Source: Candidatus Thorarchaeota archaeon
GTDB lineage: Archaea > Asgardarchaeota > Thorarchaeia > Thorarchaeales > Thorarchaeaceae
Direction of reading: 5' to 3'
Length of the DNA stretch: 17,550 bases
NCBI GenBank assembly: GCA_048882045.1
Contig: JBHLRZ010000048.1
Coordinates: 1 to 17,550, forward strand
A model generated the notes under the pieces. The model had not been told where the DNA came from. It worked only from the letters and a program-made list of their open reading frames with translations, and did no database searches. Positions 1 through 13,677 of the stretch are shown here, piece by piece (position 1 is the first letter of the stretch; every line of letters starts with the position of its first letter). Both the position numbers and the translations under genes were made by a program.

Positions 1-354
1 GATAAATCTCCGCGAGGAACAGACCAGAATCGTGCGCTCCTTGATTTAGCACGAATTGAGAATTCTATGGCAACCCACTCAAAAGATGATATGAAAGTTG
101 CAGCTCCTAGAAAATGGCTTTCCACCCTAGAAAAGCGCGCATGTGATCATGACCTACCTGGCATCAGAATGTATGCAGGCTTGCTCAAATCTGAGCTCTA
201 TCAAAACAATGGACAACTCAAAGATGCATTGGTCACACTTCAAGATGCGTTAACTATCACTGATTCTCTGGGTGTTCAAACCCTTAGAAGAAAGATAACT
301 AAGCAAATACAGAATCTTGAACAACTTCTCCAACAGGAGGGCACGATTTCTTGA
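1..354 (+). CDS. TPR-like helical repeat protein, array copy 1 (5'-truncated, C-terminal fragment)
   Basis: Frame 1 is open from base 1 (DKSPRGTDQNRALLDLARIENSMATHS...). It aligns with the C-termini of copies 2-5 (NRxLLDL, KWLSTLEK, DLPGIRMYA, ITDSLGVQTL). The ATG at 67 is internal. Confidence 0.9.
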   Translation, partial: DKSPRGTDQNRALLDLARIENSMATHSKDDMKVAAPRKWLSTLEKRACDHDLPGIRMYAGLLKSELYQNNGQLKDALVTLQDALTITDSLGVQTLRRKITKQIQNLEQLLQQEGTIS

Positions 355-1856
355 GACCAATGGGGACCATAACAAAGTACTACCCGTTCATCGATGAGGA
401 AAGTAAGTCTATACTCGACTCAATCATGGAAGATTCGAGTAGCTACAATGAATTTGTACAGCAACTATGTAGTATAGTTCTCGAGAATGAAGTCCCTGTC
501 AATCTAGCATATGTCGCTGCAGTTCAGGCTTGGTGGTGTAGATTTGGAGAGACCATGAATCAGATCCAAGAGAAATACAATGAAGTATTATGGATCAAAC
601 CTTGGGGCTATTATCACGGGTCCTTGGAGAGAGACCAAATACAGCAACATGACGCACTCGTTGGCTCGATAGAAAGAGCACTCGACTGGTCTCATGATGA
701 GTGGATAGAAACAGAGCTTCACTTGCTTCACGCGTTCTTTCATCATCCCTTTGGTGATGTCGAAAGCGTGCTGGAGCCACTTGAGAAAGCAAAGGTTTTG
801 ATTGATACACATCCTCAATTGAGGTGCTTTGAATCTCTCATCTATGCATTCGAAGGCTTGACAAAAGCGAGAGAAGGGGACATGAAGGGATGTCTTAGCG
901 ACCTTCGAAAGGGTAGGGTACTTGCTGAAGCGCATGATGATTCGCTATACAAGTACATGAACATGCTCCAAGAGGGAAACATCCTGCGAGTTTTTGATGT
1001 TCAGAATGCAACGCTGGTTTTTGAAGATCTCTATGACCTAGTTCAGGACTTGGATGTACCGTATTTTCTAGGTGAAGTTTTGAACGACTATTCAATCTTG
1101 TTTGAAGCAACAGGTGAGTTTGATTTGGCTATTTCAAGCCAATATGAAATCATGAATATGCAGCTGCAACAACCTCTAAGTGACACTCTTTACATACTAC
1201 TTGCTCGGAGTTACGCAACACTGGGTGATGGTCCACACGCTCTTGAATGGATTAACAGAGGACTCGAAACTTGCGGTCCTCTTGACACTCCAACAATGTA
1301 CAATACAAAAGCTTGGGCATTAGCATTACTAAATCAATTAGATAAAGCCGAAAAAACTCTAGAAATTGCATATTCATTGACAATAAAATCTGGCCTGGAA
1401 ATTCATTTGGGAAACTACTATCATATTTCTGGAGTTGTCGAGTTAAAGAAGGGGAATCTTCTAGATGCCTTGGACCTTTTTAAAAAAGCATGGGAATTTG
1501 CTGAACGCCGTCCTAGAGTTGATAGAGATAATCGTTTGCTCCTTGATTTAGCACGAGTCGAGATTTTGATTGACAATCAATCAATCGATAAAACGAAAGT
1601 TGTCGTTCCGGGAAAGTGGCTCTCCAAGCTTGAAACACACGCAATGGAAGGTGACTTGCCTGGTATCAGAATGTACGCCGCACTCCTCAAGTCAGAATTC
1701 TACCAGAACCATGGCCAACTCCAAGACGCACATGCAGTACTGGTTGATGCTTTGGGCATCACTGACTCCCTGGGAGTCGTGACTTTGAAGAAAAGAATTA
1801 CAAGCCAAATTCAAGAGATACAACAACTTCAACGAGATAAGGAGTTGGCGTCATGA
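351..1856 (+). CDS. TPR-like helical repeat protein, array copy 2 (501 aa)
   Basis: The TTG start overlaps the previous stop (TTGA), with CAGGAGG upstream; an alternative ATG lies at 360. N-terminus MRPMGTITKYYPFIDEE. TPR-like helix pairs: GEFDLAISS, LARSYATLGDGPHALEWINRG, KAWALALLNQLDKAEKTLEIA, KGNLLDALDLFKKAW. No signal peptide or TM segment seen. Confidence 0.88.
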   Translation: MRPMGTITKYYPFIDEESKSILDSIMEDSSSYNEFVQQLCSIVLENEVPVNLAYVAAVQAWWCRFGETMNQIQEKYNEVLWIKPWGYYHGSLERDQIQQHDALVGSIERALDWSHDEWIETELHLLHAFFHHPFGDVESVLEPLEKAKVLIDTHPQLRCFESLIYAFEGLTKAREGDMKGCLSDLRKGRVLAEAHDDSLYKYMNMLQEGNILRVFDVQNATLVFEDLYDLVQDLDVPYFLGEVLNDYSILFEATGEFDLAISSQYEIMNMQLQQPLSDTLYILLARSYATLGDGPHALEWINRGLETCGPLDTPTMYNTKAWALALLNQLDKAEKTLEIAYSLTIKSGLEIHLGNYYHISGVVELKKGNLLDALDLFKKAWEFAERRPRVDRDNRLLLDLARVEILIDNQSIDKTKVVVPGKWLSKLETHAMEGDLPGIRMYAALLKSEFYQNHGQLQDAHAVLVDALGITDSLGVVTLKKRITSQIQEIQQLQRDKELAS

Positions 1857-3361
1857 AGGCGATGGGGACAATCACAAAGTACTATCCGTTTATAGATGAG
1901 GAATCAAAGTCGATACTGAGCTCTCTAATGGAAGAGTCGAGTAGCTACTATGATTTTGTTCTTCGATTATGTGAAGTAGTTCTTGAAGATGAAATCCCAG
2001 TCAATCTTGCATACATCGCAGCAGGTCAGGCATGGTGGTGTGGGATGAACGCAACTATGAAGTTAGTTGAAAAGAAGTACGGAGATGTACCTTGTATAAA
2101 GCCATGGATGCATATTGTTAAAACTGGTGAAAGAGACCAAATGCTCTACCACGACACCGTGGTTAAAGCTATAGAGAATGCAATAAAATGTTCAATAGAT
2201 GATTGGATAGAAACCGAGCTTCACATTCTTCATGCGTTATTTCATTATCCTATGGGCGAGGTCATAAGTCAATTTGAACCCCTTGAGAAGGCAAAAGGTT
2301 TGATTGATGCGAATCCACTGCTGGGTTGTTTTGAATCTATGATATATGCATTCGAAGGGATAGCAGCAATGAGAGAGGGGGACATGAAGCATGCTCTCGA
2401 TGTCCTCCAAAGAGGGAAAGATCTTGCTGAATTACATGATGATGCATTATACATGTACTGGAACAAGCTTCAAGAGGCAGCTGTCTTAACCTGGGGCAAT
2501 ATTTATGAAGAAGCAGCAGCCGTCTTCGAAGACCTCTATGAGCTAGCTCAAAATCTTCAAGTACCAATTCTTGTATGCGAAGTTCTGAACGATTCATCAC
2601 TTGTATATGAAGCAAAAGGTGAGTTTGATCTAACGATTTCAAGTCATCACGAAATAATGAATATTCTGGATGATGAACGTCTGTTTGATACGACTTACAT
2701 AATACTCTCAAGAACTTATGCCACACTAGGTGATGGCCACCAGGCTTTAGAATGGATTAACAGGGGTATCGAAGATAATGCGCCATTTGAAAGCCCATTC
2801 ATGTATAATTGGAAAGCTTGGGCATTAGCATTAGTTAACAGATTGGATGATGCTGAACGAACTTTGGAAACTGCTTACTTACTGATAGTTAAATCTGGTC
2901 TGGAACGTCATTTAGGAGACTACTATTATGTTTCAGGAGTAATTGAATTGAGAAAGGGTGAACTCCTGAATGCGTTGGATTTACTAGAAAAAGCATGGGA
3001 TGTTGCAAATCAGTATCCTCGAGGAAACAACCAAAATCGACCTCTTCTCGATTTGGTACGAGCTGAGAATTTGATTGCCAGTCAATCAAGAGATAATACC
3101 AAGGTTGCGGCTCCAGGCAAGTGGCTTTCCACTCTTGAAAAGTATGCGTTTGATCGTCACTTGCCTGGTATTCGAATGTATGCGGCTCTACTCAAATCGG
3201 AATTCTATGAAAGTCAAGGACAAATCAAAAATGCGCTTGCGACACTTCAGGACGCATTAGACATCACAGACTCTTTAGGTGTTCAAACTCTTAAGCGAAA
3301 AATCACTACTAGAATAAAACGAATTAATCAACTAAATCAAGATGCGGGAATGGATTCATGA
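1853..3361 (+). CDS. TPR-like helical repeat protein, array copy 3 (502 aa)
   Basis: ATGA overlap with AAGGAG upstream. MKAMGTITKYYPFIDEE N-terminus; collinear with copy 2 along its whole length. Confidence 0.9.
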   Translation: MKAMGTITKYYPFIDEESKSILSSLMEESSSYYDFVLRLCEVVLEDEIPVNLAYIAAGQAWWCGMNATMKLVEKKYGDVPCIKPWMHIVKTGERDQMLYHDTVVKAIENAIKCSIDDWIETELHILHALFHYPMGEVISQFEPLEKAKGLIDANPLLGCFESMIYAFEGIAAMREGDMKHALDVLQRGKDLAELHDDALYMYWNKLQEAAVLTWGNIYEEAAAVFEDLYELAQNLQVPILVCEVLNDSSLVYEAKGEFDLTISSHHEIMNILDDERLFDTTYIILSRTYATLGDGHQALEWINRGIEDNAPFESPFMYNWKAWALALVNRLDDAERTLETAYLLIVKSGLERHLGDYYYVSGVIELRKGELLNALDLLEKAWDVANQYPRGNNQNRPLLDLVRAENLIASQSRDNTKVAAPGKWLSTLEKYAFDRHLPGIRMYAALLKSEFYESQGQIKNALATLQDALDITDSLGVQTLKRKITTRIKRINQLNQDAGMDS

Positions 3362-4842
3362 AGCTGATGGGGACCATCACAAAGTACTATCCCTTCATCG
3401 GTGAAGAAACACAGCGGATTCTAGACACAGTAATGGCCAAATCAAGTAGTTATTTTGATCTTGTACGACAGTTATCAACTACGGTGCTTGAAGATGAGGT
3501 TCCGAATGACTTGGTATATATCACTACAACACTGACTTGGCTAATTAGAGAACAGAAACTAATCAACGAAATTACGAAAAAGTATGGGGATCTAGCCTGC
3601 ATCAGACCATGGAAAACATCATCCAACTCTCTTCTGTTTACTCAAAGAAACGAGTATCAGAAGATAAAGGAGGCTTTGGATGAACTGCATAATTCCTCTA
3701 TCTCTGATTGGATGATTGTTGAACAAATTCTCAATCATATAGTCACTTTACAAATGCCCCTCGAATCAATACGCTATCTTTCATTAGCTGAAGGGATGAT
3801 AAGTCAAGAGTCCAACTTGAAGTGTTTCGACCCTCTGGTCCAACTTGGCTACGGACATTTTTCATGGTTCTCTGGAAACTCATCTAATGCGGCTACTCAC
3901 ATTCAACGAGGTCTGGAACTCGCCAGAGATTATGATGATGCTGTGTATGAATACTTCGGTCTCTTACTCTCAGCAAACTTCAAGAAGCAGCAAAACTATC
4001 GGGAAGGCCTTGACATATTTGAACAAGCCTATTCTATTGTACAGAATCTTGATGTTCCCTTCTTTGTTGCTGAAATATTGAATGATTCTTCGACAGCGTA
4101 TGAAATTGGTGGAGAGTATGATCTGGCTATATCAAGCCAGATTCAAGGTATGAATTCATTCGATGGTGATGTTGGTATCGAGATTTGTTATGTAATACTG
4201 TCCCGGCTCTATGCAAATTTAGGTGAGGGTCACCATGCTCTTGAGTGGGCTGATCGAGCATTGAATATGTCTTCCTATGACTATGGACATCTCGTGAAGG
4301 CACGAGCTCTGGTAGTCTTAAACCGCCTCGAGGAAGCTGAGAAGTTCTTGGATATTGCTTATCGTAAAACTCTCGAAACTGGGTATGATATCCCATTGAG
4401 TAGGTATCACCTCACATCGGGTCTGTTTGAAATGGCAAGAGGTGAATTGCTTGCCGCCCGAGGATCTCTGGAACAAGCATATGACATAGCTTCTCAAATA
4501 CAAGGCTTACTAACTCTGAATGAAATATTGATAGCTCTTGCTCAAGTAGAACTGGCTCTACTAAAGGAGTCTGAAAGCACTGATGAAGCAATTTCAGGAA
4601 AGTGGCTGAAAATCCTTGAAACCCATGCACGAACCTACGATCTACCAGGTATTGCAATTCAAGCCTCCATGATAAGATCTGAGAGGTTCCAGATTCAAGG
4701 ACAACTCAAGGATGCACACGAAACTCTTCAACAGGCTCTAAAAATATCCGAGTCACCCGGAGTCAACACTCTTAGGAAGAGAATCTCAATACGAATCAGT
4801 GAGATTAAGCGTCTTATGCATGATGAGGAGTTGGCCTCATGA
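3358..4842 (+). CDS. TPR-like helical repeat protein, array copy 4 (494 aa, most divergent)
   Basis: ATGA overlap. MKLMGTITKYYPFIGEE N-terminus; retains LDVPFFVAEILNDSS, GEYDLAISS, LSRLYANLGEG, GKWL and DLPGI. Confidence 0.9.
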   Translation: MKLMGTITKYYPFIGEETQRILDTVMAKSSSYFDLVRQLSTTVLEDEVPNDLVYITTTLTWLIREQKLINEITKKYGDLACIRPWKTSSNSLLFTQRNEYQKIKEALDELHNSSISDWMIVEQILNHIVTLQMPLESIRYLSLAEGMISQESNLKCFDPLVQLGYGHFSWFSGNSSNAATHIQRGLELARDYDDAVYEYFGLLLSANFKKQQNYREGLDIFEQAYSIVQNLDVPFFVAEILNDSSTAYEIGGEYDLAISSQIQGMNSFDGDVGIEICYVILSRLYANLGEGHHALEWADRALNMSSYDYGHLVKARALVVLNRLEEAEKFLDIAYRKTLETGYDIPLSRYHLTSGLFEMARGELLAARGSLEQAYDIASQIQGLLTLNEILIALAQVELALLKESESTDEAISGKWLKILETHARTYDLPGIAIQASMIRSERFQIQGQLKDAHETLQQALKISESPGVNTLRKRISIRISEIKRLMHDEELAS

Positions 4843-6350
4843 AGCCGATGGGGACAATCACCAAGTACTATCCATTCATCGATGAGGAAACCAGGTCTAT
4901 ACTTGATTCAATCATGGAGGATTCGAGTAGCTACTATGATTTTGTACAGAGTCTATGTCATGTTGTTCTTGAGAGTGATGTTCCAACCAATCTGGCTTAC
5001 ATTGCAGCAGTCCAGGCTTGGTGGTGTAGACTAGAGGATGAAATGGGGCGCATAAATCAGAAATTCAAAGATATTCTTCACATAGTTCCATGGGGAAATA
5101 TTCACGCTTCCCTTGAGAGAGATCAAATCCGATTTCATGATGCTGTAGTCAAAGCCATAGAGCAATTAGTAGAAGAATCCACGGGTGATTGGGTTCTAAC
5201 GGAGCTCCATCTTCTCCATGCCCATTTCCACTGGCCTGCTTTTGGCGACATTCCCAGTCAACTCGAACCAGTTCGGAAGGTAAGGGAACTGATAATTGTG
5301 AATCCCCTTCTGGAATGTTTTGAGGCTCAAGCTTGTTTCTACGAGGGGTGGGCAAAAAGAATCGAGGGTGAAATCGAGGATGCCATTGCTATTTATCAAA
5401 ACGGGATAGAACTTGCTGAAGCTCATGATGAATCCTTACACATGTACCTGAACCTCGGAGGTCAAGCTGATGCTTTAAAGAGCGTCAGTATTAAGAAAGC
5501 AATAGCTCGGTTCGAGGAGTCCTACCAGCTTACTCTAGACCTTGAAGTACCATATCTAGAAGGCGAAGTCTTACATGATTCGGGATTAGTCTTTGAAATC
5601 GCAGGTGAGTACGACCTTGCACTCTCAAGCTACCAAGAATCAGGGAAGGCTTACCAATTCGATGGTTTTCTACACTACCAATATGCGCCAATCTCTAGGA
5701 TCTATGTTACACTTGGTGATGGTGAAAAGGCTCTGAAAATGGTCAATCTTGTTCTTGAAGATTATGAAGTTTCCGGGATTCAGTTTCCATACTTGGCAAA
5801 AGCATCTGCTTTAGCGCTACTCAATAGAATAGATGAAGCCGAAGTCAACCTTGAAGAAGCTCACAAACTAGTAATCAAGAGTGGTTTAGATCGCCAATTG
5901 GGAAGGTACTACTTGACTGCAGGACTTGTCGAATTTGTGAAGGGTGAATATTTGTCTTCCATGGACTGGTACGAGAAGGCTTGGGAAATCTTTGAACGTG
6001 TGGGTCAGGTGTATGGAGAGCAGAATCTTGCACTCATTGGTCTAACAAGAGCAGAGATTCTACTTGACAGTCAAACCTCGGATGTCAAGAAGACCATTAC
6101 GCCAGGAAGGTGGCTCTCCAAGCTTGAGAAATATGCAACTGAAAGGGACCTGCCAGGAGTCAGAATGCAAGCTGCCTCCCTCAAGTCCGAATTCTATCAA
6201 AATCATGACCAACTCATAGATGCCAAAGCAGTCCTTCAGGATGCATTGAATATCACTGACTCGCAAGGTGTTGCATCACTTCGAAAGCGGATTTTAGACA
6301 GGATCGATGCGATTGACAGTCTTCTTCAAGGTCTGGAAACGCAGTCATGA
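4839..6350 (+). CDS. TPR-like helical repeat protein, array copy 5 (503 aa)
   Basis: ATGA overlap with GAGGAG upstream. MKPMGTITKYYPFIDEE N-terminus; same scaffold motifs as the other copies. Confidence 0.9.
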   Translation: MKPMGTITKYYPFIDEETRSILDSIMEDSSSYYDFVQSLCHVVLESDVPTNLAYIAAVQAWWCRLEDEMGRINQKFKDILHIVPWGNIHASLERDQIRFHDAVVKAIEQLVEESTGDWVLTELHLLHAHFHWPAFGDIPSQLEPVRKVRELIIVNPLLECFEAQACFYEGWAKRIEGEIEDAIAIYQNGIELAEAHDESLHMYLNLGGQADALKSVSIKKAIARFEESYQLTLDLEVPYLEGEVLHDSGLVFEIAGEYDLALSSYQESGKAYQFDGFLHYQYAPISRIYVTLGDGEKALKMVNLVLEDYEVSGIQFPYLAKASALALLNRIDEAEVNLEEAHKLVIKSGLDRQLGRYYLTAGLVEFVKGEYLSSMDWYEKAWEIFERVGQVYGEQNLALIGLTRAEILLDSQTSDVKKTITPGRWLSKLEKYATERDLPGVRMQAASLKSEFYQNHDQLIDAKAVLQDALNITDSQGVASLRKRILDRIDAIDSLLQGLETQS

Positions 6351-6368
6351 ATACATGGCCAAAATAGG

Positions 6369-6378
6369 TTTATTATAA
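6369..6378 (+). promoter_or_regulatory. Putative archaeal TATA box for the 6399 gene (probably a leaderless or short-leader transcript)
   Basis: TTTATTATAA preceded by purine-rich AAAATAGG (BRE-like), 20-30 nt upstream of GTG 6399 / ATG 6408. No SD motif seen. Confidence 0.5.
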
Positions 6379-6398: not shown

Positions 6399-7055
6399 GT
6401 GAAGAAGATGCACTTGCGACATACGAACCTATCAATCGTGGCGGTCCTCACGATACTCCTGCTGACGGGATTCATGCAGACACCTGTTTCAGCACATTTA
6501 CCCGAAGACATGACACTTGTCTACGATTTCGGCTCGCAGATGCTTTCAGTGAATGTTTCGCACTATACTCCGAACACGAAGACCCACTATATCGAGCAGA
6601 TTGAAATATTGAAAAATGGTATCTCAGTTCAGAACAGGACCTACGAAAACCAGTCACTCGACTATGGCGTCTATGAAACATTTAGCGTTCCAACCGTTGT
6701 TGATGACAACCTCACTGTTACAGCCTTCTGCTCCAAGGATTACTCCCTGACGAGTTGGTTGATTGTCACTTCCACTACTGCAACCAATCCTCCATCAACT
6801 GAAACAACCACTAGTACAGAACCTACCGATGGTACACCACCACCAGCAGATGGATCATTGGGAGCTGGTGTTGCAATTGCTGCAGGTGTCGGAGTTGTGC
6901 TCTTCCTCATCATATTCTTCGCGTGGCTCAAACCTGACTCTGTTCCTGATTCGCTCAAACAGCTTGGATCTCGGATAAGACCAGGCGCTGCTTGGATTGG
7001 TGAGAAGTTGAGCAGTCTTTTCCAGCAGATCAAGACGAGAATACCATCTCGTTGA
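6399..7055 (+). CDS. Secreted, C-terminally membrane-anchored protein with a His/Cys beta-sandwich (superoxide-reductase/desulfoferrodoxin-like) domain
   Basis: Signal peptide (basic N-region, hydrophobic core, VSA|H). ~90-aa beta-rich domain with HLP, SHYT, THYIEQIE and AFCSKD, then a Thr/Pro/Ser-rich linker, a TM helix (GVAIAAGVGVVLFLIIFFAWL) and an amphipathic tail. The CDS is solid; the domain call is tentative. Confidence 0.7.
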   Translation: MKKMHLRHTNLSIVAVLTILLLTGFMQTPVSAHLPEDMTLVYDFGSQMLSVNVSHYTPNTKTHYIEQIEILKNGISVQNRTYENQSLDYGVYETFSVPTVVDDNLTVTAFCSKDYSLTSWLIVTSTTATNPPSTETTTSTEPTDGTPPPADGSLGAGVAIAAGVGVVLFLIIFFAWLKPDSVPDSLKQLGSRIRPGAAWIGEKLSSLFQQIKTRIPSR

Positions 7056-7084: not shown

Positions 7085-8728
7085 CTACCTATACGCATCG
7101 AGAAAGGTCTGCACAAATAGTTCTTTCATACTTTTCTTCTCAGCCCTTTCTTTTGGAACCTGCGAAAGCAATCGCTTACTGTACGAACTGGCCCCAATCC
7201 TTGGATCGTCATCAATCTTTGAAACGTATTCCAGAGCCTTGACAAGTTCATCATCAAAGGGCTGTTGGAGATGTTGATTCACAAGCTGAAGACTGTCCAA
7301 AATTCGCCTTGTCAAAGTGTTCTCCCAATGGGTCCAGCGGTGGGTGGAACCATAGCTGCTTCTTCTTCGTTTCCAACTCTGAAACCGTCTTCCATGCTTC
7401 ATGATCTGTTTGGCAAAGTATTGATGGACTCCCTCGTTTTTGCCAATGCCTCGGATGGTCATCATCTTGCTGAAGACCCTTCTCGATGGCCTGTCAGTAC
7501 CAATACGTGTGATCACTGTGGGTGCATTCTTTCTGATTGCCGCAAGTCCTTCACGACCTTGATTCATCAGCGCCAACACACTGGCTCTGACAACTGGTCT
7601 ACTACTGTGGGTTAGATATGGTGAGATGATGTCTACGAGTCCAGTACTCTCCTGTCTGGCTATGGCTCTAATCGCAGCCGCCTTGACTGTGTTTCCGGCC
7701 TCTTTCAATACCTCAACGAGAGTTTCTCTACAGGTCGGTGAGTAGATTCTTCCTATTGCCTCAACAGCTACCTCTGACTCCTTTGTGACATAACGTCTTT
7801 CACTGAGCTTGGCTCTCTCCTTTAGGAGGTCAATGGAGGATGCATGCCCTACATAGCCAAGTGCCTCGACGATGCTCATCCTCACTCTGCTGTTCTCCTC
7901 TATACCGAGTCTATGGTTGAGGAATGGAAGCGTCCTCGAGTCTTCTGTTCTCCCCAGTTGGTATGCGGCACTGCTTCGGTTCCCAGGCCTCTTGTAGAAC
8001 GAGAGACGGACAGCATTGGCCAGAATGTCAGCTGTTTTCTTCGTGCATCGATCCTTGAAGATACGACTGCTTCCTAAGGTCTTGTAGGTCTTGTCCATGT
8101 CTACTGACTCTGCAAGCTCGCCGGTGAGTTGCTTTATCGCATTGACTGCAGAGTCCGTCAAGCTCTCATCAAGCCAGGTCCTCCTTCTCCGATATCGGTA
8201 ACCATACGTTGAGATCTGGGACTCCATGTATGTTGAGCCCTCGATCATGAGAATGGAGAATCCATAGAATGTTCCAAGCACATCAATCCTCGATGGGTTG
8301 GGTCCCAGCTGTTCAAGCTCGCGCTTTCGAGCCTCGATGACATCCTTCACTAGGATCGCATATGGTGTGAGGGCCATAGCATCCACATCTAGGAAGTAGG
8401 TATGCTTGCCTGAAATCTGTGTCCTGAGAATCTCTATGGCTTTGTCACGAGCCTGTGCTCTGATCTGAGGGAGTGTAGTTCCCTCTAGGTTCTTGAACTC
8501 CCTGAAGATGTCCGAGTCGGTCCCACCCACGGTCTCTAGCTGCAAGAGGTTTACCAATGCGTCGCGGGCCTTTCCCCCTGCATGTGACCGACGGTCATAA
8601 TCAATATCATCGAGAAGCCTCCTCCAATCACCGGTTTCGATGTATTCCTTGGTCTGTTCCTCCAGTTCGGAGTACATTCTCCTCTGTACAAGTTCAGAAA
8701 TTGCTGTATTGCCCATCATAACTCCCAT
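7085..8728 (-). CDS. HEAT-repeat (PBS-lyase-like repeat) domain protein
   Basis: 547-aa ORF. Tandem HEAT-like units: RSSAAYQLGRTEDSRTLPFL, VRMSIVEALGYVGHASSIDLL, AVEAIGRI, VKAAAIRAIAR, VVRASVLAL. The start could instead be ATG 8719 or 8716. Confidence 0.8.
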   Translation of the reverse strand: MGVMMGNTAISELVQRRMYSELEEQTKEYIETGDWRRLLDDIDYDRRSHAGGKARDALVNLLQLETVGGTDSDIFREFKNLEGTTLPQIRAQARDKAIEILRTQISGKHTYFLDVDAMALTPYAILVKDVIEARKRELEQLGPNPSRIDVLGTFYGFSILMIEGSTYMESQISTYGYRYRRRRTWLDESLTDSAVNAIKQLTGELAESVDMDKTYKTLGSSRIFKDRCTKKTADILANAVRLSFYKRPGNRSSAAYQLGRTEDSRTLPFLNHRLGIEENSRVRMSIVEALGYVGHASSIDLLKERAKLSERRYVTKESEVAVEAIGRIYSPTCRETLVEVLKEAGNTVKAAAIRAIARQESTGLVDIISPYLTHSSRPVVRASVLALMNQGREGLAAIRKNAPTVITRIGTDRPSRRVFSKMMTIRGIGKNEGVHQYFAKQIMKHGRRFQSWKRRRSSYGSTHRWTHWENTLTRRILDSLQLVNQHLQQPFDDELVKALEYVSKIDDDPRIGASSYSKRLLSQVPKERAEKKSMKELFVQTFLDAYR

Positions 8729-8777: not shown

Positions 8778-9545
8778 CTATAAACTCTGAAGGAACTCTA
8801 TAGTGCACGCAAACAGATTGTCCTTGAATCTGTCATCGCTCATGATTGCGTGAGGTGCTCCTTCAACAATGACTAACTGCTTGTTCTCGGAGGCTATACC
8901 ATCAAAGATCTTCTGAGCGCTATCTCGAGAGACTCCATCATCATTTGTACCTTGAATGATGAGTGCTGGGCAGGTCACGTCTTTGAGTGACCTCTTCAGG
9001 CGCGCTAGAATCTCACGTATAATGAAACCTATGTTGGTTGGTATCCACTCGTATCCTACCCACCCCTTATCTCGCACAGATTTAGGAGCAAGCGATTGGT
9101 GTCGCTCAGGGATGGCTCGTTTCATGAGTGGAATCCTTCCTATGATTGGGAGTAGGGAAAACAGCCTGTTCTTGACATTGTATACTGCTGCCCACGTCAC
9201 GATGCCATTGACCTCGGGTCTCTCTGATGCTGCAAGTAGAGTAAGAACACCTCCTACACTGTGGCCAACAATGAACACGCGCTCACAGGTCTCTAGAAGC
9301 CGGTCGAGTCCCGAGTACACATCATTGAGCCAGTCATCTTCGGTGATGTCAAGCAGGTCTTCTGGTCTGGTCCCGAATCCAGTGAGAGATGGCAACCACA
9401 CGGTCATTCCAGTCTGTTCATGCAGTATATTCGCAAACTCCTTCTCGTCCCAAGCCGACCCGCCTCCTGCACCATGGAGGATAAGACAGCCTCTCATATT
9501 GCCTTCGATGAAGAGTGGCTCTGCTCCAGGGAGATACTTGGTCAC
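8778..9545 (-). CDS. Alpha/beta-hydrolase, carboxylesterase / monoacylglycerol-lipase-like (Est30/YvaK type)
   Basis: GAEPLF N-terminus, LILHG oxyanion region, GHSVGG nucleophile elbow, LIIQGTNDDGV (Asp) and APHAI (His). The GTG start overlaps the MFS stop (GTGA), with GAGGAG upstream. Confidence 0.88.
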   Translation of the reverse strand: MTKYLPGAEPLFIEGNMRGCLILHGAGGGSAWDEKEFANILHEQTGMTVWLPSLTGFGTRPEDLLDITEDDWLNDVYSGLDRLLETCERVFIVGHSVGGVLTLLAASERPEVNGIVTWAAVYNVKNRLFSLLPIIGRIPLMKRAIPERHQSLAPKSVRDKGWVGYEWIPTNIGFIIREILARLKRSLKDVTCPALIIQGTNDDGVSRDSAQKIFDGIASENKQLVIVEGAPHAIMSDDRFKDNLFACTIEFLQSL

Positions 9546-10897
9546 GTCTCCTCACTGCCTCCGTGTTCCTGTTTGAGTGCTTCGAAGTCTGGATCAATAT
9601 CGATGTAGCGAAGGATAAAGGCGGCTATCAAAAGGAACGGAGCAAACACTGGTCCCCACCACATGAGGCCGGTCAGTTCTTCTCCCGTCAGAATGACAGA
9701 GAACTGCATCAGTGCTCCCAGCAGGAGACTTGAGGCTGCCTGGAACATGTTCAGGGGTACACCTATGAACCCGGTATATATTCCCGCCCGACTCTCTCCT
9801 GTGACAATCTCATCGACCTGTGCTATATCTGCTGGAACAACATAGCTCATGAGATAGTAGATCGACATGCCTGCTCCTATGGGGACGAAGAACAGCACTG
9901 CAGCCAGAGTGAATCCGACAACCTCACCGACGTTTCGAAGTACAGCAGAAAGGGGTGTGAACAGAGCAAGCAACACCAGTCCGATGATCAGAGACCGCCT
10001 TTTTCCCAGTTTCCTGATTCCAGTCAGCCAGAGATAAAAGAATACAATTGTAGATCCCAACATGGCGAGGGCTGCTGGCGCGAGTTGCATGATATCATTG
10101 AGGAACATCACCTGTTGGAGAAATCCCACCAGAGACTGGTTTATTGCAATCAGCGTGAACGATAGAAAGCCAACTACCAGTGTCCATCCCACAAATGTGC
10201 GATTTCCAACAGCAACTTTGGTCTCCTCTCTCAGACTGCGTGCAATGGGTTCGATGCCTGGTTTCGCTCGTATCACGGTCATCGATGGGAGCATGAAGAG
10301 GAGAGTGATGAAACAGAAGAGCAGGAGAAGGTTGAGACCTGTGGGACTCAACTGTTCTGGAGGTCCTGCAATGAACAACAGGGGAGTCATGAAACCCAGG
10401 ATGCCTCCGGATGAGTCAGCTGCGAAGTTGAAGGTGTTCATGAATCCTGAAACAAGGGGTCTCTCGGTCTCGTCTGTTATCTCTGGCAACCATGCCTGAT
10501 GTGCGGTCATCACAAAGGCATAGAAGAACTTGAAGAGGCACAGGAGGACAATGTAGTAGCCAAACACACTTAGCTCGAGGGCTGGATTTGCTGTGTCGAT
10601 AAACCAGTTGGGCACAAATAGAAAGAATGCCGATATCACTATACCCGGGGTACCGAGAATGACAAAGGGTCGTCTTCTACCCCATCTGCTTTGCATCGTA
10701 TCACTATAATAACCGGAGAACCAGTGGGTCAGTCCAATTACTATGTACGACGCTGCCAGTGAGATGCCGTTCAGGAACCAGTTCAGCTGGAAGCTCGTGC
10801 CATACACGTAGAAGACAGTCATGGTGATCATGGTCATCAGGAAGGATGGTCCGAACCTTCCCATCGAGTATCCCAGTTTCTTCGGTAGAGACAGCAT
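9542..10897 (-). CDS. MFS transporter, GPH/MelB-like (MFS_2) family
   Basis: About 12 hydrophobic segments. Family signature GYYSDTMQSRWGRRRPF, plus AWLPEITDETER and ADIAQVDEIVTGESRAGIY. Confidence 0.88.
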   Translation of the reverse strand: MLSLPKKLGYSMGRFGPSFLMTMITMTVFYVYGTSFQLNWFLNGISLAASYIVIGLTHWFSGYYSDTMQSRWGRRRPFVILGTPGIVISAFFLFVPNWFIDTANPALELSVFGYYIVLLCLFKFFYAFVMTAHQAWLPEITDETERPLVSGFMNTFNFAADSSGGILGFMTPLLFIAGPPEQLSPTGLNLLLLFCFITLLFMLPSMTVIRAKPGIEPIARSLREETKVAVGNRTFVGWTLVVGFLSFTLIAINQSLVGFLQQVMFLNDIMQLAPAALAMLGSTIVFFYLWLTGIRKLGKRRSLIIGLVLLALFTPLSAVLRNVGEVVGFTLAAVLFFVPIGAGMSIYYLMSYVVPADIAQVDEIVTGESRAGIYTGFIGVPLNMFQAASSLLLGALMQFSVILTGEELTGLMWWGPVFAPFLLIAAFILRYIDIDPDFEALKQEHGGSEET

Positions 10898-11063: not shown

Positions 11064-11591
11064 TTGAAGGAAAGTAGCGATTCACCTACAATCTACATTT
11101 CTGGGGACTCCTCCAAGGTGGCTACATGCAAATGGTGTGGGTCAGTTGAGAGTGATGACTGGAAACTGGGTCGTGGAGCGTATTGCTCACGGGAATGTAA
11201 TTATGCTGATCGGTCAGAGAGCTACCTGGTTAGCATTCTATGTTGGGTTCCTCTTTTCTCTTTGGTTATAATCTTCGCAATGCCCTCACTAAGCATCACC
11301 TCATTCGCCATAGCGTTGGCAATATCTTTTGTACTCCTTGGATGTCCCTCCATGCTCTTCGGTTTTGCAGGAAGGGCATACAGAAAGGAAATCCCTAAGG
11401 GGTCTCGGAAAACTGAGGGTAGAGTATCTGAGTTGGCTCTCCTGAGGTCAGTGACGTCGAGTGTTTCATGCCCCACATGTGATGCGAGTATAGACCTTTC
11501 AGATATCAGAGAGGATAAACTATACCACTGTGATTATTGTGGGGCTTCGGGGATTGTTGAACTACTCAAGACTGAGAAACGAGTCAGATGA
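11064..11591 (+). CDS. Two-TM membrane protein with N- and C-terminal zinc-binding motifs
   Basis: TTG start with GTGAGGAG upstream. CKWC-x15-CSREC (TRASH/treble-clef-like), two TM helices, then CPTC-x16-CDYC. Confidence 0.8.
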   Translation: MKESSDSPTIYISGDSSKVATCKWCGSVESDDWKLGRGAYCSRECNYADRSESYLVSILCWVPLFSLVIIFAMPSLSITSFAIALAISFVLLGCPSMLFGFAGRAYRKEIPKGSRKTEGRVSELALLRSVTSSVSCPTCDASIDLSDIREDKLYHCDYCGASGIVELLKTEKRVR

Positions 11592-12318: not shown

Positions 12319-13677
12319 ATGTTGAAAGGAGTTCCATATATCACCAATCGTAAGGAGATGAGGGATCTGGAACGATTTTCTGATGCACTCTCCAAGATGT
12401 ATGCAATACTTCTTGCTGGTTGTCTATTTGTGAGTCAGGTAGGAGCTGTGCCCTTCTCATTAGCTGCTGATGATCTTAGTTTGGAAGGACCCAACAACCT
12501 CTGGGTGGAAATCTACAATTATACCAGTGTTTTGGATCACATCGATATCAGTCGAACCGAAGGTGGCTACATCATTAGTGGGCTATATTACAACTATAGC
12601 AGTTCCGATCCCTATCGGGGAATAATCATTGAAGTTTCTTCAAACGGATCTGTTTTGCTTCAGGAATATCTAGGGGGAGGAAATTATGATGAGATTCAAT
12701 CAATAGTACAATGCAGTAATGGGGACTTTGTGATAGTTGGGAACACCGAGAGCTTTGGTGCTAATGAAACAGGTGACCCTTTGCCCAAACTATGGCTTGT
12801 GAGACTCTCTAACAACGGGAGCATTATCTGGAATAAGTGGTATGATAATATCTATGGGGGCTCTTCACTTGCAGAATGTCAAGATGGGAGTTTCATAATA
12901 TCTTCTGCAACTCCTCATCTCGTTCATGTTGACGAAAATGGATCGCTCTTATGGTCCAAATCATATCAGGATTGGGACATCTCAGAGGCAAGAAGCGTAG
13001 TCGAATGTACGGATGGTGGGTTTGCCTTTGCTGGTATCGTGTGGACAATGACAACATCTGATGTTGAATCTTGGGCGTGGCTTGTTCGTACGGACTCTGA
13101 TGGGACCATGCTCTGGAATCAGACATACGATGGTTCTGCAGATTCATTGATCCAATGCAGTGATGGTGGCTTCGCAATTGCAGGGGAATCGGAAGATTGG
13201 ACTCCCCAGTTGCTCAGGACCAATGAGGACGGCGACCTGCTCTGGGCCAAGACATACGCTAGTGCTTATGTCCCTGGACGTGCTCACTCTGTTGTACAGT
13301 GTTCCGATGGTGGTTTTGGAATCGCTGGCTCTATTGATGAGAGTTGGAGTTCCCTGGTTTCAGACGCCTTATTTCTAAGGACTGATGAAGAAGGCAATGA
13401 GCTTTGGCGTAGCATCTGCTCAAGCTCTGAAGAAGACTATGCTAGTTCTTTAGTGTTAAGTAATGATGGGTTTGCAGTTGTAGGTACAACTCTTCAGGAC
13501 GACTTTTCTTCCAAAGCATTTCTTTGGGTTCTCACTGATTACTATGTTCCACCAACACCCACAAACGGAGGCCCTCTTCTGGGTGTCACAGTGATAGTAT
13601 CCTTGGGTATCTGCACTCTGTTTGCGATAATTATCTGGAATCAAAAGAAGAAGGTTGATTACTCGCCCGAATTGTGA
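12319..13677 (+). CDS. Secreted, membrane-anchored beta-propeller repeat protein
   Basis: Signal-like segment (MYAILLAGCLFVSQVGA); the true start is possibly ATG 12358. About 7 repeats of Sxx(Q/E)CxDGGFxxxG...WLVRTDxxGxxLWxxxY, then a PPTPT linker, a TM helix and a KKK tail. Confidence 0.82.
   Translation: MLKGVPYITNRKEMRDLERFSDALSKMYAILLAGCLFVSQVGAVPFSLAADDLSLEGPNNLWVEIYNYTSVLDHIDISRTEGGYIISGLYYNYSSSDPYRGIIIEVSSNGSVLLQEYLGGGNYDEIQSIVQCSNGDFVIVGNTESFGANETGDPLPKLWLVRLSNNGSIIWNKWYDNIYGGSSLAECQDGSFIISSATPHLVHVDENGSLLWSKSYQDWDISEARSVVECTDGGFAFAGIVWTMTTSDVESWAWLVRTDSDGTMLWNQTYDGSADSLIQCSDGGFAIAGESEDWTPQLLRTNEDGDLLWAKTYASAYVPGRAHSVVQCSDGGFGIAGSIDESWSSLVSDALFLRTDEEGNELWRSICSSSEEDYASSLVLSNDGFAVVGTTLQDDFSSKAFLWVLTDYYVPPTPTNGGPLLGVTVIVSLGICTLFAIIIWNQKKKVDYSPEL

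Follow-up and report, generated by a model that had tools for sequence, protein, structure and literature searches.

The window, which is the whole stretch of DNA analysed (positions 1 to 17,550 of contig JBHLRZ010000048.1, assembly GCA_048882045.1), opens with an array of TPR genes that fills positions 1–6350. It starts inside a gene: the 3′ end of copy B, comprising its last 117 codons, occupies positions 1–354 and is followed by copy C (351–1856, 501 amino acids, TTG start), copy D (1853–3361, 502 amino acids), copy E (3358–4842, 494 amino acids) and copy F (4839–6350, 503 amino acids), which is the final gene of the array. All five reading frames lie on the forward strand and are free of internal stop codons. 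The end of contig C42 is identical to the start of the window over 77 nt, and the frame joined across this stretch, which begins with a TTG codon at C42 position 22406, encodes a copy B of 503 amino acids that is 92% identical to the full-length homolog P0016. Given this exact overlap and the joined frame, the array consists of six co-oriented copies (A–F), and the six tandem paralogs are predicted to form one operon.

Each junction within the array is an xTGA start/stop overlap of four nucleotides on the forward strand, with the sequence TTGA at 351–354 and ATGA at 1853–1856, 3358–3361 and 4839–4842. A GGAG/GAGG-like Shine–Dalgarno motif is located 8–14 nt 5′ of each start, inside the final codons of the gene before it. 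Together, the overlaps and these motifs imply coupled and roughly stoichiometric synthesis of the products, and no pro-peptide gene would fit between genes that overlap in this way. Only a six-codon open reading frame is found 3′ of copy F. A TATA box precedes copy A, and the sequence beyond position 6350 is rich in T. The earlier note had described at least five translationally coupled TPR-like paralogs, a description that the reading frames, overlaps and Shine–Dalgarno motifs bear out with one copy more than was claimed. The paralogs are 39–60% identical to each other in pairwise comparisons. Copy E belongs to a divergent A/E type and shares 47% identity with copy A and 39% with copy D, while copy C is 84% identical to a single-copy ortholog at locus L062.

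Fold and range of the TPR proteins

In Pfam the copies match TPR families only. TPR_12 exceeds its gathering cut-off in P0001, P0003 and P0004 (for copy C 30.7 bits against a cut-off of 30.1), and TPR_MalT stays below threshold in all four copies (16–29 bits against 45). The AlphaFold2 model of copy D (pLDDT 92, pTM 0.90) contains 26 helices, and the whole chain is modelled as a helical repeat. TPR_12, this model and the structural matches found with Foldseek and VIA-align agree on at least three tandem helix-turn-helix repeats of ∼34 residues wound into a superhelix, as in the TPR repeat superfamily. Each product is thus, as modelled, a cytoplasmic all-α TPR superhelix.

The nearest solved folds are ligand-sensing TPR domains. 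The best match of the copy D model in VIA-align is domain III of MalT (PDB entry 1hz4; Z = 21.7 with 337 residues aligned), followed by the RRNPP receptors phage φ105 Rap with its peptide (20.9), AimR (20.3), NprR (19.1) and RapH (18.5) at a sequence identity of 10–12%, although unrelated TPR proteins (LGN, APPBP2 and APC subunits) reach the same Z of 18–21 as Rap, AimR and NprR. The atlas search retrieved TPR regions from LuxR/GerE, CHAT and AfsR proteins with TM scores of 0.6–0.7 (0.69–0.70 for GerE-TPR proteins), and the top Foldseek matches include CNOT10 and the TPR subunits of APC/C.

The TPR_MalT sensor domains of STAND/LAL regulators such as MalT, AfsR and LuxR/GerE-TPR proteins resemble the array proteins in being right-handed TPR-like superhelices of ∼350–450 residues. 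Unlike these regulators, the array proteins are stand-alone and archaeal, carry a distinct conserved N-terminal module of ∼60 residues and have neither an NTPase (no Walker A motif) nor a DNA-binding output domain. In Pfam and NCBIfam no NTPase or P-loop family is hit at an E-value of 1 or better, and no HTH, enzyme or catalytic domain is found. The view put forward in the earlier note, of TPR solenoids that are cytoplasmic and stand-alone, are conserved at both ends and have no catalytic, NTPase or HTH domain, therefore stands. They are also close in size and shape to the RRNPP receptors (HTH-less Rap, AimR and NprR), likewise stand-alone cytoplasmic TPR proteins. Like Rap they lack a DNA-binding domain, and any effect of theirs would have to run through a regulator that they bind.

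RRNPP receptors carry at their N-terminus a DNA-binding HTH domain or, in Rap, a three-helix bundle that binds effectors. The N-terminal module of the array proteins matches no Pfam family above threshold, and a search of its profile against the PDB returned nothing relevant, the matches being repeat artefacts. A weak similarity to DUF7557 is seen in 26 of 44 members (best E-value 6.6 × 10^-4), and we found no mention of DUF7557 in the literature. The idea that this N-terminus is a ribbon-helix-helix (RHH) domain was dropped, given the weak DUF7557 similarity, the empty PDB profile search and an hhalign probability of 0.6% against the RHH-like neighbour of 107 amino acids that is described below.

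A profile of the module matches 237 clusters (50% identity level), and almost all of these are proteins of ∼490–510 residues with the module at residue 1. Some family members reach ∼650 residues through an additional C-terminal segment of ∼140 residues, which, as no more than a guess, might be longin-like and connect the family to small GTPases. The family is present in 58 of the 85 genomes of one GTDB family of Thorarchaeota (Asgard archaea) at 0–17 copies per genome, and it is found neither in the sister family (0/1) nor in any of ten other families of the phylum.

Conservation and history of the paralogs

The copies share the N-terminal motif M-x-x-[ML]-GTITKYYPF and a C-terminal KWL/LPG/SE/ITDS-GV block, as had been noticed earlier. 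The most conserved surfaces are indeed located at both ends of the protein, at residues 5–13 (0.2 bits), residues 444–452 (0.43 bits) and the amphipathic helix 475–501. Between these ends the earlier note had pointed to hypervariable loops at fixed positions, which in copy D correspond to residues ∼265–279 and 385–393. Both are B-to-A inter-repeat loops, and across 126 family members they are the two most variable loops (2.7 and 2.9 bits). This part of the claim holds, but the two segments rank only third and fifth among about ten comparably variable nine-residue windows, several of which are helical, and they are well conserved inside ortholog clades. The entropy is 1.37 bits in helices and 1.49 bits in loops. 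The A and B helices do not differ (1.36 versus 1.44 bits, p = 0.38); they were assigned to the concave and the convex face, respectively, by the register of the repeats, with A and B helices taken from Pfam, rather than from coordinates. The variable residues are thus scattered.

Selection on the genes was assessed from ortholog pairs, which give dN/dS values of 0.31, 0.21 and 0.31 (pairwise Nei–Gojobori estimates only). No window of 50 codons in these comparisons has a meaningful excess of non-synonymous change. Among the array paralogs pS is 0.63–0.80 and saturated, so that dN/dS between the six copies is uninformative. Copies B, C, D and F and the paralog on contig C43 have relatives in other genomes (63–92% identity, the lower value being that of the nearest outside relative of copy F) that are closer to them than their own paralogs. 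Gene conversion was considered as a source of the conserved 5′ ends in this array and rejected, as the first 20 codons carry synonymous differences (pS 0.24–0.85).

These results bear on the proposal that the array is a repertoire of diversified intracellular receptors, for immunity or for RRNPP-like peptide signalling, that contact their ligands through hypervariable loops. The kinship in fold to MalT domain III and the RRNPP receptors, the richness of the family in paralogs, its variable copy number per genome and the top rank of the flagged pair among the loops agree with such a repertoire. So does a PADLOC match in the TPR region to the candidate system PDC-M71B, which is weak (E-values 2.6 × 10^-6 and 9 × 10^-4) and comes without partner genes; the PADLOC search gave no credible match. 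Against it stand the low dN/dS, the conservation of the flagged loops in ortholog clades, the equal variability of A and B helices and the missing NTPase, effector and HTH domains. In addition, no defence genes are found in the 15 kb upstream or the 11 kb downstream, where the neighbours are housekeeping-like, and no effector gene was found. The array also differs from RRNPP systems in that no small secreted-peptide gene adjoins it and its paralogs are not receptor–peptide cassettes; the host is neither a Firmicute nor a phage. In place of a cognate pro-peptide gene, the only conserved small neighbour is that of a membrane protein of 127 amino acids with an invariant tail. We consider the receptor repertoire very improbable, and scattered variable residues without an excess of non-synonymous change were the outcome that the earlier note itself had named as refuting it. 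Tandem paralogs with conserved ends and variable loops can mimic an immune-receptor repertoire by eye, and caution is warranted: here the paralogs are old, under purifying selection and have recognisable orthologs elsewhere. They look like old, stably retained binding or adaptor proteins and not like a fast-evolving set of receptors.

At the syntenic locus the number of copies is 1, 2, 3 or 6, depending on the species, and the array is therefore expandable. A broken TPR copy is seen in genome G002 and a fragment of 166 amino acids in G003. The history of the array is one of slow birth and death of old paralogs and not of rapid diversification.

Old and retained paralogs made in a coupled, roughly stoichiometric manner could also be the subunits of a hetero-oligomeric scaffold, in which the copies, present in fixed ratios, build one multi-subunit TPR platform. 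They would contact each other by the N-terminal peptide, which is invariant, by the last repeats and by the long helix at the C-terminus, and the small neighbouring genes would be incidental. The platform would be comparable to the TPR subunits of APC/C or to CNOT10/11, and the concentration of conservation at both ends as well as the CNOT10 and APC/C matches fit with it. The changing copy number at the same locus, with a single copy in many genomes, means however that a fixed hetero-complex is not conserved, and we regard this scaffold as unlikely.

The TPR cassette and its promoter element

The first TPR gene is arranged head-to-head with a conserved gene for a protein with two transmembrane segments (2-TM protein) in at least 13 genomes from four genera. 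This protein has ∼127 amino acids, with a hydrophobic hairpin of two helices and, at the C-terminus, an invariant tail (R-T-x-PKDQF-V/T-K/R). Its gene is followed downstream by that for a very conserved protein of ∼107 amino acids. The same arrangement recurs in the independent contexts L055, L057 and L062 of our synteny tables. In its ancestral form the small cassette comprises one TPR gene divergent from a 2-TM gene, followed by the 107-amino-acid gene. Among close relatives, part of this linkage could be plain synteny.

For both small proteins the Pfam and PDB profile searches were empty, and an atlas search yielded no named relatives for the 2-TM protein. The monomer model of the 107-amino-acid protein consists of a coil (residues 31–38), helices 41–52 and 59–73 and a long helix 75–103. 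The protein resembles ParD/CopG-type repressors in its strand-like segment, two helices and long C-terminal helix. Its fold matches are weak (Foldseek E-values of 0.6 or worse, VIA-align Z of 5.4 or lower) and are mostly to ParD, PrpA, MazE and NikR; the atlas leads are RHH_1 and MetJ, with scores below 0.9. Unlike the ParD/CopG-type repressors it reaches no significant sequence or fold score and has no toxin gene beside it, and DNA binding is putative. This neighbour is a candidate ParD/CopG-like protein and probably binds DNA.

The same tandem GTAT element, with a repeat unit of 7 bp, is present in the promoter of the 107-amino-acid gene and in the intergenic region shared by the TPR and 2-TM genes. 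An exact 15-mer of it occurs only at C42 positions 20277–20291 and 20831–20845 in the whole genome of 3.6 Mb, the heptad region around the second site spanning 20824–20852, and the heptads, TATA box and Shine–Dalgarno sequence are conserved in nine genomes. ParD/CopG-type repressors bind tandem repeats, and the omega repressor binds heptads. The head-to-head TPR/2-TM pair, the ParD/CopG-like gene beyond it and the heptad element that they share are newly found here. That the locus is made up of tandem coupled TPR paralogs that are old and under purifying selection, in a cassette with a shared heptad element and with a copy number that changes at the locus, we regard as highly probable.

Proposed regulation of the cassette

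The explanation that we tentatively favour, plausible though a little short of probable, is a locally regulated cassette with a multiplied gene for a TPR adaptor or sensor of putative function. In this mechanism the 107-amino-acid protein would be an RHH (ParD/CopG-like) repressor on the heptads and, by binding them, would control the TPR operon as well as its own gene and that of the membrane protein. With their MalT domain III or Rap-like shape, the TPR proteins would be protein- or peptide-binding adaptor or sensor subunits. A common interface may be formed by their nearly invariant N-terminal peptide together with the last repeats, and the more variable middle repeats may give each old paralog a separate partner. 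Their output would pass through partners, most plausibly the long C-terminal helix of the RHH-like protein and/or the tails of the membrane protein. Taken by itself, the mechanistic part, with an RHH repressor on the heptads and TPR adaptors or sensors that act through partners, is possible, if rather doubtful.

A more specific and in our view unlikely form of this cassette mechanism is an undescribed archaeal signalling module. Here, TPR sensors would dock onto the long C-terminal helix of the ParD-like repressor, in a manner reminiscent of toxin–antitoxin or Rap–regulator binding, and tune the occupancy of its private heptad operator. The invariant tail of the 2-TM protein would serve as a membrane-derived input, and one to six TPR copies would multiply the inputs onto one operator. 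A complex prediction for copy D with the 2-TM tail (residues 78–127) returned a score of 0.00, which is no verdict and counts neither way. With its fixed architecture, narrow range and high-confidence predicted structure, the Thorarchaeota TPR family is a tractable case among the α-solenoid proteins of Asgard archaea, in whose proteomes they are unusually numerous and of unresolved function (bioRxiv 10.64898/2026.10.28.762692). The copy-number change at a single locus, the few candidate partners and the private cis element lend themselves to binding and regulation experiments.

This same abundance of α-solenoids would also suit generic TPR proteins of this lineage that serve as co-chaperones or assembly factors and have no dedicated partners, for which the shared element would be a strong local promoter module. 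Most other paralog loci have no conserved neighbours. In the genome studied here these loci are found on contigs C43, C20, C22 (three copies), C13 and C10, all of them without a 2-TM or RHH-like neighbour, and around ten paralog loci of this genome no partner gene recurs at an E-value below 10^-5. Of the five RHH-like genes, two are located away from any TPR gene, and at the related locus L059 an unrelated membrane protein takes the place of the 2-TM protein. Because of these partnerless loci, the two RHH-like genes and L059, the cassette cannot explain the whole family. The generic reading is nevertheless quite unlikely: the TPR and 2-TM genes stay paired head-to-head over four genera and rearranged flanks, and the 15-mer is confined to the cassette's two promoter regions. 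Moreover, a scan of the paralog loci for small open reading frames picked up an RHH-like neighbour at C37 only, where the gene for a paralog of the 107-amino-acid protein lies immediately upstream of a further TPR paralog and is transcribed away from it.

A six-gene array of TPR paralogs

The window opens contig C48 of a 3.6 Mb assembly of 93 contigs, and its first 77 nt are an exact match to the terminal 77 nt of contig C42 from the same genome. Across this join, copy B reads as an uninterrupted frame of 503 amino acids with 92% identity to a full-length database homolog. Upstream of copy B, C42 holds one further copy, bringing the array to six genes, A–F, one above the earlier minimum of five. 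Copy A (C42:20934-22409) is followed by copy B, which starts at C42:22406 and ends on the plus strand of the window with its last 117 codons (1-354). Copies C (351-1856), D (1853-3361), E (3358-4842) and F (4839-6350) are complete plus-strand ORFs of 494-503 codons. Pairwise identity between the paralogs is 39-60%, and both the ORFs and the alignment agree with the earlier description of an array with conserved N- and C-terminal blocks.

Every junction in the array is a 4 nt xTGA overlap, with a GGAG/GAGG-type motif 8-14 nt to its 5' side, inside the terminal codons of the upstream gene. Judged from the sequence, this is the classical layout for translational coupling. The end of copy F (6347-6372) repeats the TC-ATG-A motif of the internal junctions, and the overlapping ATG there opens an ORF of only six codons (MNTWPK). 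This may be what remains of a junction that once led into a seventh copy, now lost, or a by-product of the conserved Ser-stop ending.

The first 20 codons are conserved among the copies and carry synonymous differences all along. The N-terminal conservation is therefore at the protein level, and recent gene conversion is ruled out as its source.

Fold and range of the TPR family

Pfam and NCBIfam return TPR families only: TPR_12 just passes its threshold, and TPR_MalT stays under its own in each of the four complete copies. No P-loop, HTH motif, enzyme domain, signal peptide or TM segment was found in the copies. An AlphaFold2 model of copy D (41 homologs) is all helical, with 26 helices, a pLDDT of 92 and a pTM of 0.90. 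The domain searches and the model thus support the earlier view of stand-alone TPR-like proteins lacking TM, HTH and Walker A motifs. Foldseek retrieves generic TPR superhelices, among them CNOT10, OGT, APC/C subunits and MalT domain III. In an exhaustive VIA-align search MalT domain III ranks first (Z = 21.7), followed by phage phi105 Rap with peptide (20.9), LGN (20.9) and APPBP2 (20.7), with AimR (20.3), NprR (19.1) and RapH (18.5) as further RRNPP-type matches. Neighbours in the ESM Atlas are the TPR portions of GerE/LuxR, CHAT, AfsR and kinase proteins. Alignments of the model to several solved proteins begin already at residues 13-15, which places the 'non-TPR' N-terminal ∼130 residues inside the same modelled solenoid. 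In shape, the model is a sensor solenoid of the kind that binds ligands or partners, with no output domain attached.

The family is thus a known kind of protein. It is not classed with RRNPP, because no adjacent pro-peptide gene and no HTH were found, nor with STAND, because no NTPase was found; it would work most like the sensor halves of both. Our literature search found no paper on the family, the cassette or the 15-mer element described below.

Homologs are labelled Thorarchaeota or Promethearchaeota. A search of 1.84 billion representatives with a profile built from residues 1-140 yields 237 clusters, nearly all of 490-510 amino acids with the module starting at residue 1. The family is present in 58 of 85 genomes and 11 of 17 genera of one GTDB family (0-17 matches per genome), and was not found in whole genomes of the sister family or of ten other families of the phylum. 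The genome studied here holds about 15 members in three subgroups.

Six family forms of ∼650 amino acids (P0163, P0199, P0208, P0217, P0233 and P0267) carry an added C-terminal domain of about 140 residues with a β-β-α-β-β-α pattern. By eye its sequence looks longin-like, the E-value for Fuz_longin_1 being just 0.14. It occurs 18 times in the own genome (including C3:122236-122574, C6:108170-108535 and C8:67357-67707), where its fusion partners include an Arf/Ras-like GTPase (652 amino acids), a winged-helix protein (203) and another TPR protein (622).

Variation between copies and history of the locus

The earlier note had proposed a receptor repertoire with hypervariable loops. The two loops that it singled out vary more than any other loop. 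Among about ten similarly variable windows, however, they come 3rd and 5th, and within ortholog clades they are nearly constant; between copy B and its 92%-identical ortholog, for instance, they do not differ at all. Averaged per column over 126 members, entropy is 1.37 bits for helices against 1.49 for loops. Inner (A) and outer (B) helices, told apart by the Pfam repeat register, show no difference in variability (1.36 and 1.44 bits, p = 0.38), and dN/dS is 0.31, 0.21 and 0.31 in three close ortholog pairs. The same note had named such outcomes as speaking against hypervariable receptors. It had named fixed one-to-one orthologs as well, and these are not seen, as copy number at the locus varies.

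The syntenic locus holds one copy in L055/L056, L062 and G013, one plus a 166-residue fragment in G003, two in G007 and L057, three in G006 and in G002 (one split into 184 + 256 amino acids), at least three in G010 and L061, and six in the own genome. Synonymous sites between paralogs A–F are saturated (pS 0.63-0.80), and copies B, C, D and F and a paralog on contig C43 have their nearest relatives in other genomes, not in one another. The history of the locus is one of slow birth-and-death evolution. Two ortholog pairs diverge far more at synonymous sites over their first 50 codons than over the remainder of the gene: 0.61 against about 0.03-0.18 for copy B and L061:445-1956, and 0.52 against about 0.06-0.26 for the C43 paralog and L063:818-2308. 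These mosaics suggest that paralogs occasionally recombine at their conserved 5' ends.

The N-terminal peptide is nearly invariant (0.2 bits) and the last repeats are conserved (0.4-0.6 bits), while the middle repeats differ between old paralogs. The two conserved parts would form a common interface, the TPR proteins acting as non-enzymatic binding or adaptor subunits with output via partners. Less probable rivals are that the paralogs assemble into a hetero-oligomeric scaffold, that the family consists of generic co-chaperones, and the receptor repertoire of the earlier note.

Downstream of the array, a plus-strand gene (6399-7055) encodes a protein of 218 residues, in which a signal-like N-terminus and a Thr/Pro-rich linker precede a C-terminal TM helix. 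The gene is kept in the close relatives L038, L040, L057 and L062 and not in L055 or L041, and looks like general synteny, not a cassette member. Genes for a HEAT-repeat protein (547 amino acids; 7085-8728, minus strand), an overlapping α/β-hydrolase and MFS transporter pair (8778-10897, minus strand) and a LysW-like zinc-ribbon protein (11064-11591, plus strand) are syntenic in close relatives. Two internally repetitive proteins of ∼450 amino acids, about 30-34% identical to one another, flank the array region (window 12319-13677, plus strand; C42:12843-14186, minus strand, with a weak Mycoplasma adhesin P1_N match). C42 also carries two Kelch-propeller paralogs.

Divergent neighbours and GTAT heptads

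The earlier note had suggested inspecting the upstream flank for an effector; the 15 kb upstream and 11 kb downstream of the array contain no effector-like gene, and PADLOC reports nothing beyond a weak TPR match. The nearest gene upstream of copy A runs in the opposite direction and encodes a 127-residue 2-TM protein, whose acidic N-terminus is followed by a two-helix hydrophobic hairpin and an invariant tail. In at least 13 genomes, from four genera, full-length homologs stand head-to-head with the 5' end of a TPR gene, 100-600 bp apart; these include L055, L041 and L043, loci where the wider flanks are unrelated.

Downstream of the 2-TM gene follows a gene for a protein of ∼107 amino acids. 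Its identity between genomes is 86-90% where the TPR proteins share just 55-75%. As the own-genome gene contains a run of 101 N (C42:19881-19981; L017:11881-11981), the sequence was taken from L040, L041, L055 and L057. The monomer model consists of coil, helices 41-52 and 59-73 and a long helix 75-103. Matches from Foldseek (E 0.6 or worse) and VIA (Z 5.4 or lower) are weak and nearly all ribbon-helix-helix (RHH) proteins (ParD, PrpA, MazE, KacA and NikR), and the Atlas leads are RHH_1 and MetJ. The protein is a putative RHH protein, probably of the ParD/CopG type. The own genome has five members, of which three, at two loci, adjoin TPR-family genes.

The 15-mer TTGCGTATCG[CT]GTAT occurs exactly twice in the 3.6 Mb genome (about 0.01 expected by chance): 45-58 nt upstream of the 107-residue protein gene and in the 137 bp that separate the 2-TM gene from copy A. 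It falls within a series of GTAT heptads, which in the divergent intergenic region precede a CTATATAT TATA box and a GGAGGG Shine–Dalgarno motif. All of these are kept in nine genomes; the heptad element upstream of the 107-residue protein gene is kept in six of the nine. Tandem 7 bp repeats are typical targets of RHH repressors, for example the omega repressor. By analogy, the heptads would fit autoregulation and control of the divergent promoters by the RHH-like protein.

Of the readings considered, the best supported is that the TPR component of a small, locally regulated cassette has expanded to give the array. The cassette does not explain the other TPR subfamilies, at whose loci no such neighbours were found.

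One RHH-like paralog lies directly upstream of, and divergent from, the TPR paralog on contig C37. Between the two (L064:4847-5043) are GTAT/ATAC half-sites (ATGTATCAGTGTAA ... ATACATCAATACA), which may be an operator related to the main-cassette heptads or chance occurrences in AT-rich DNA.
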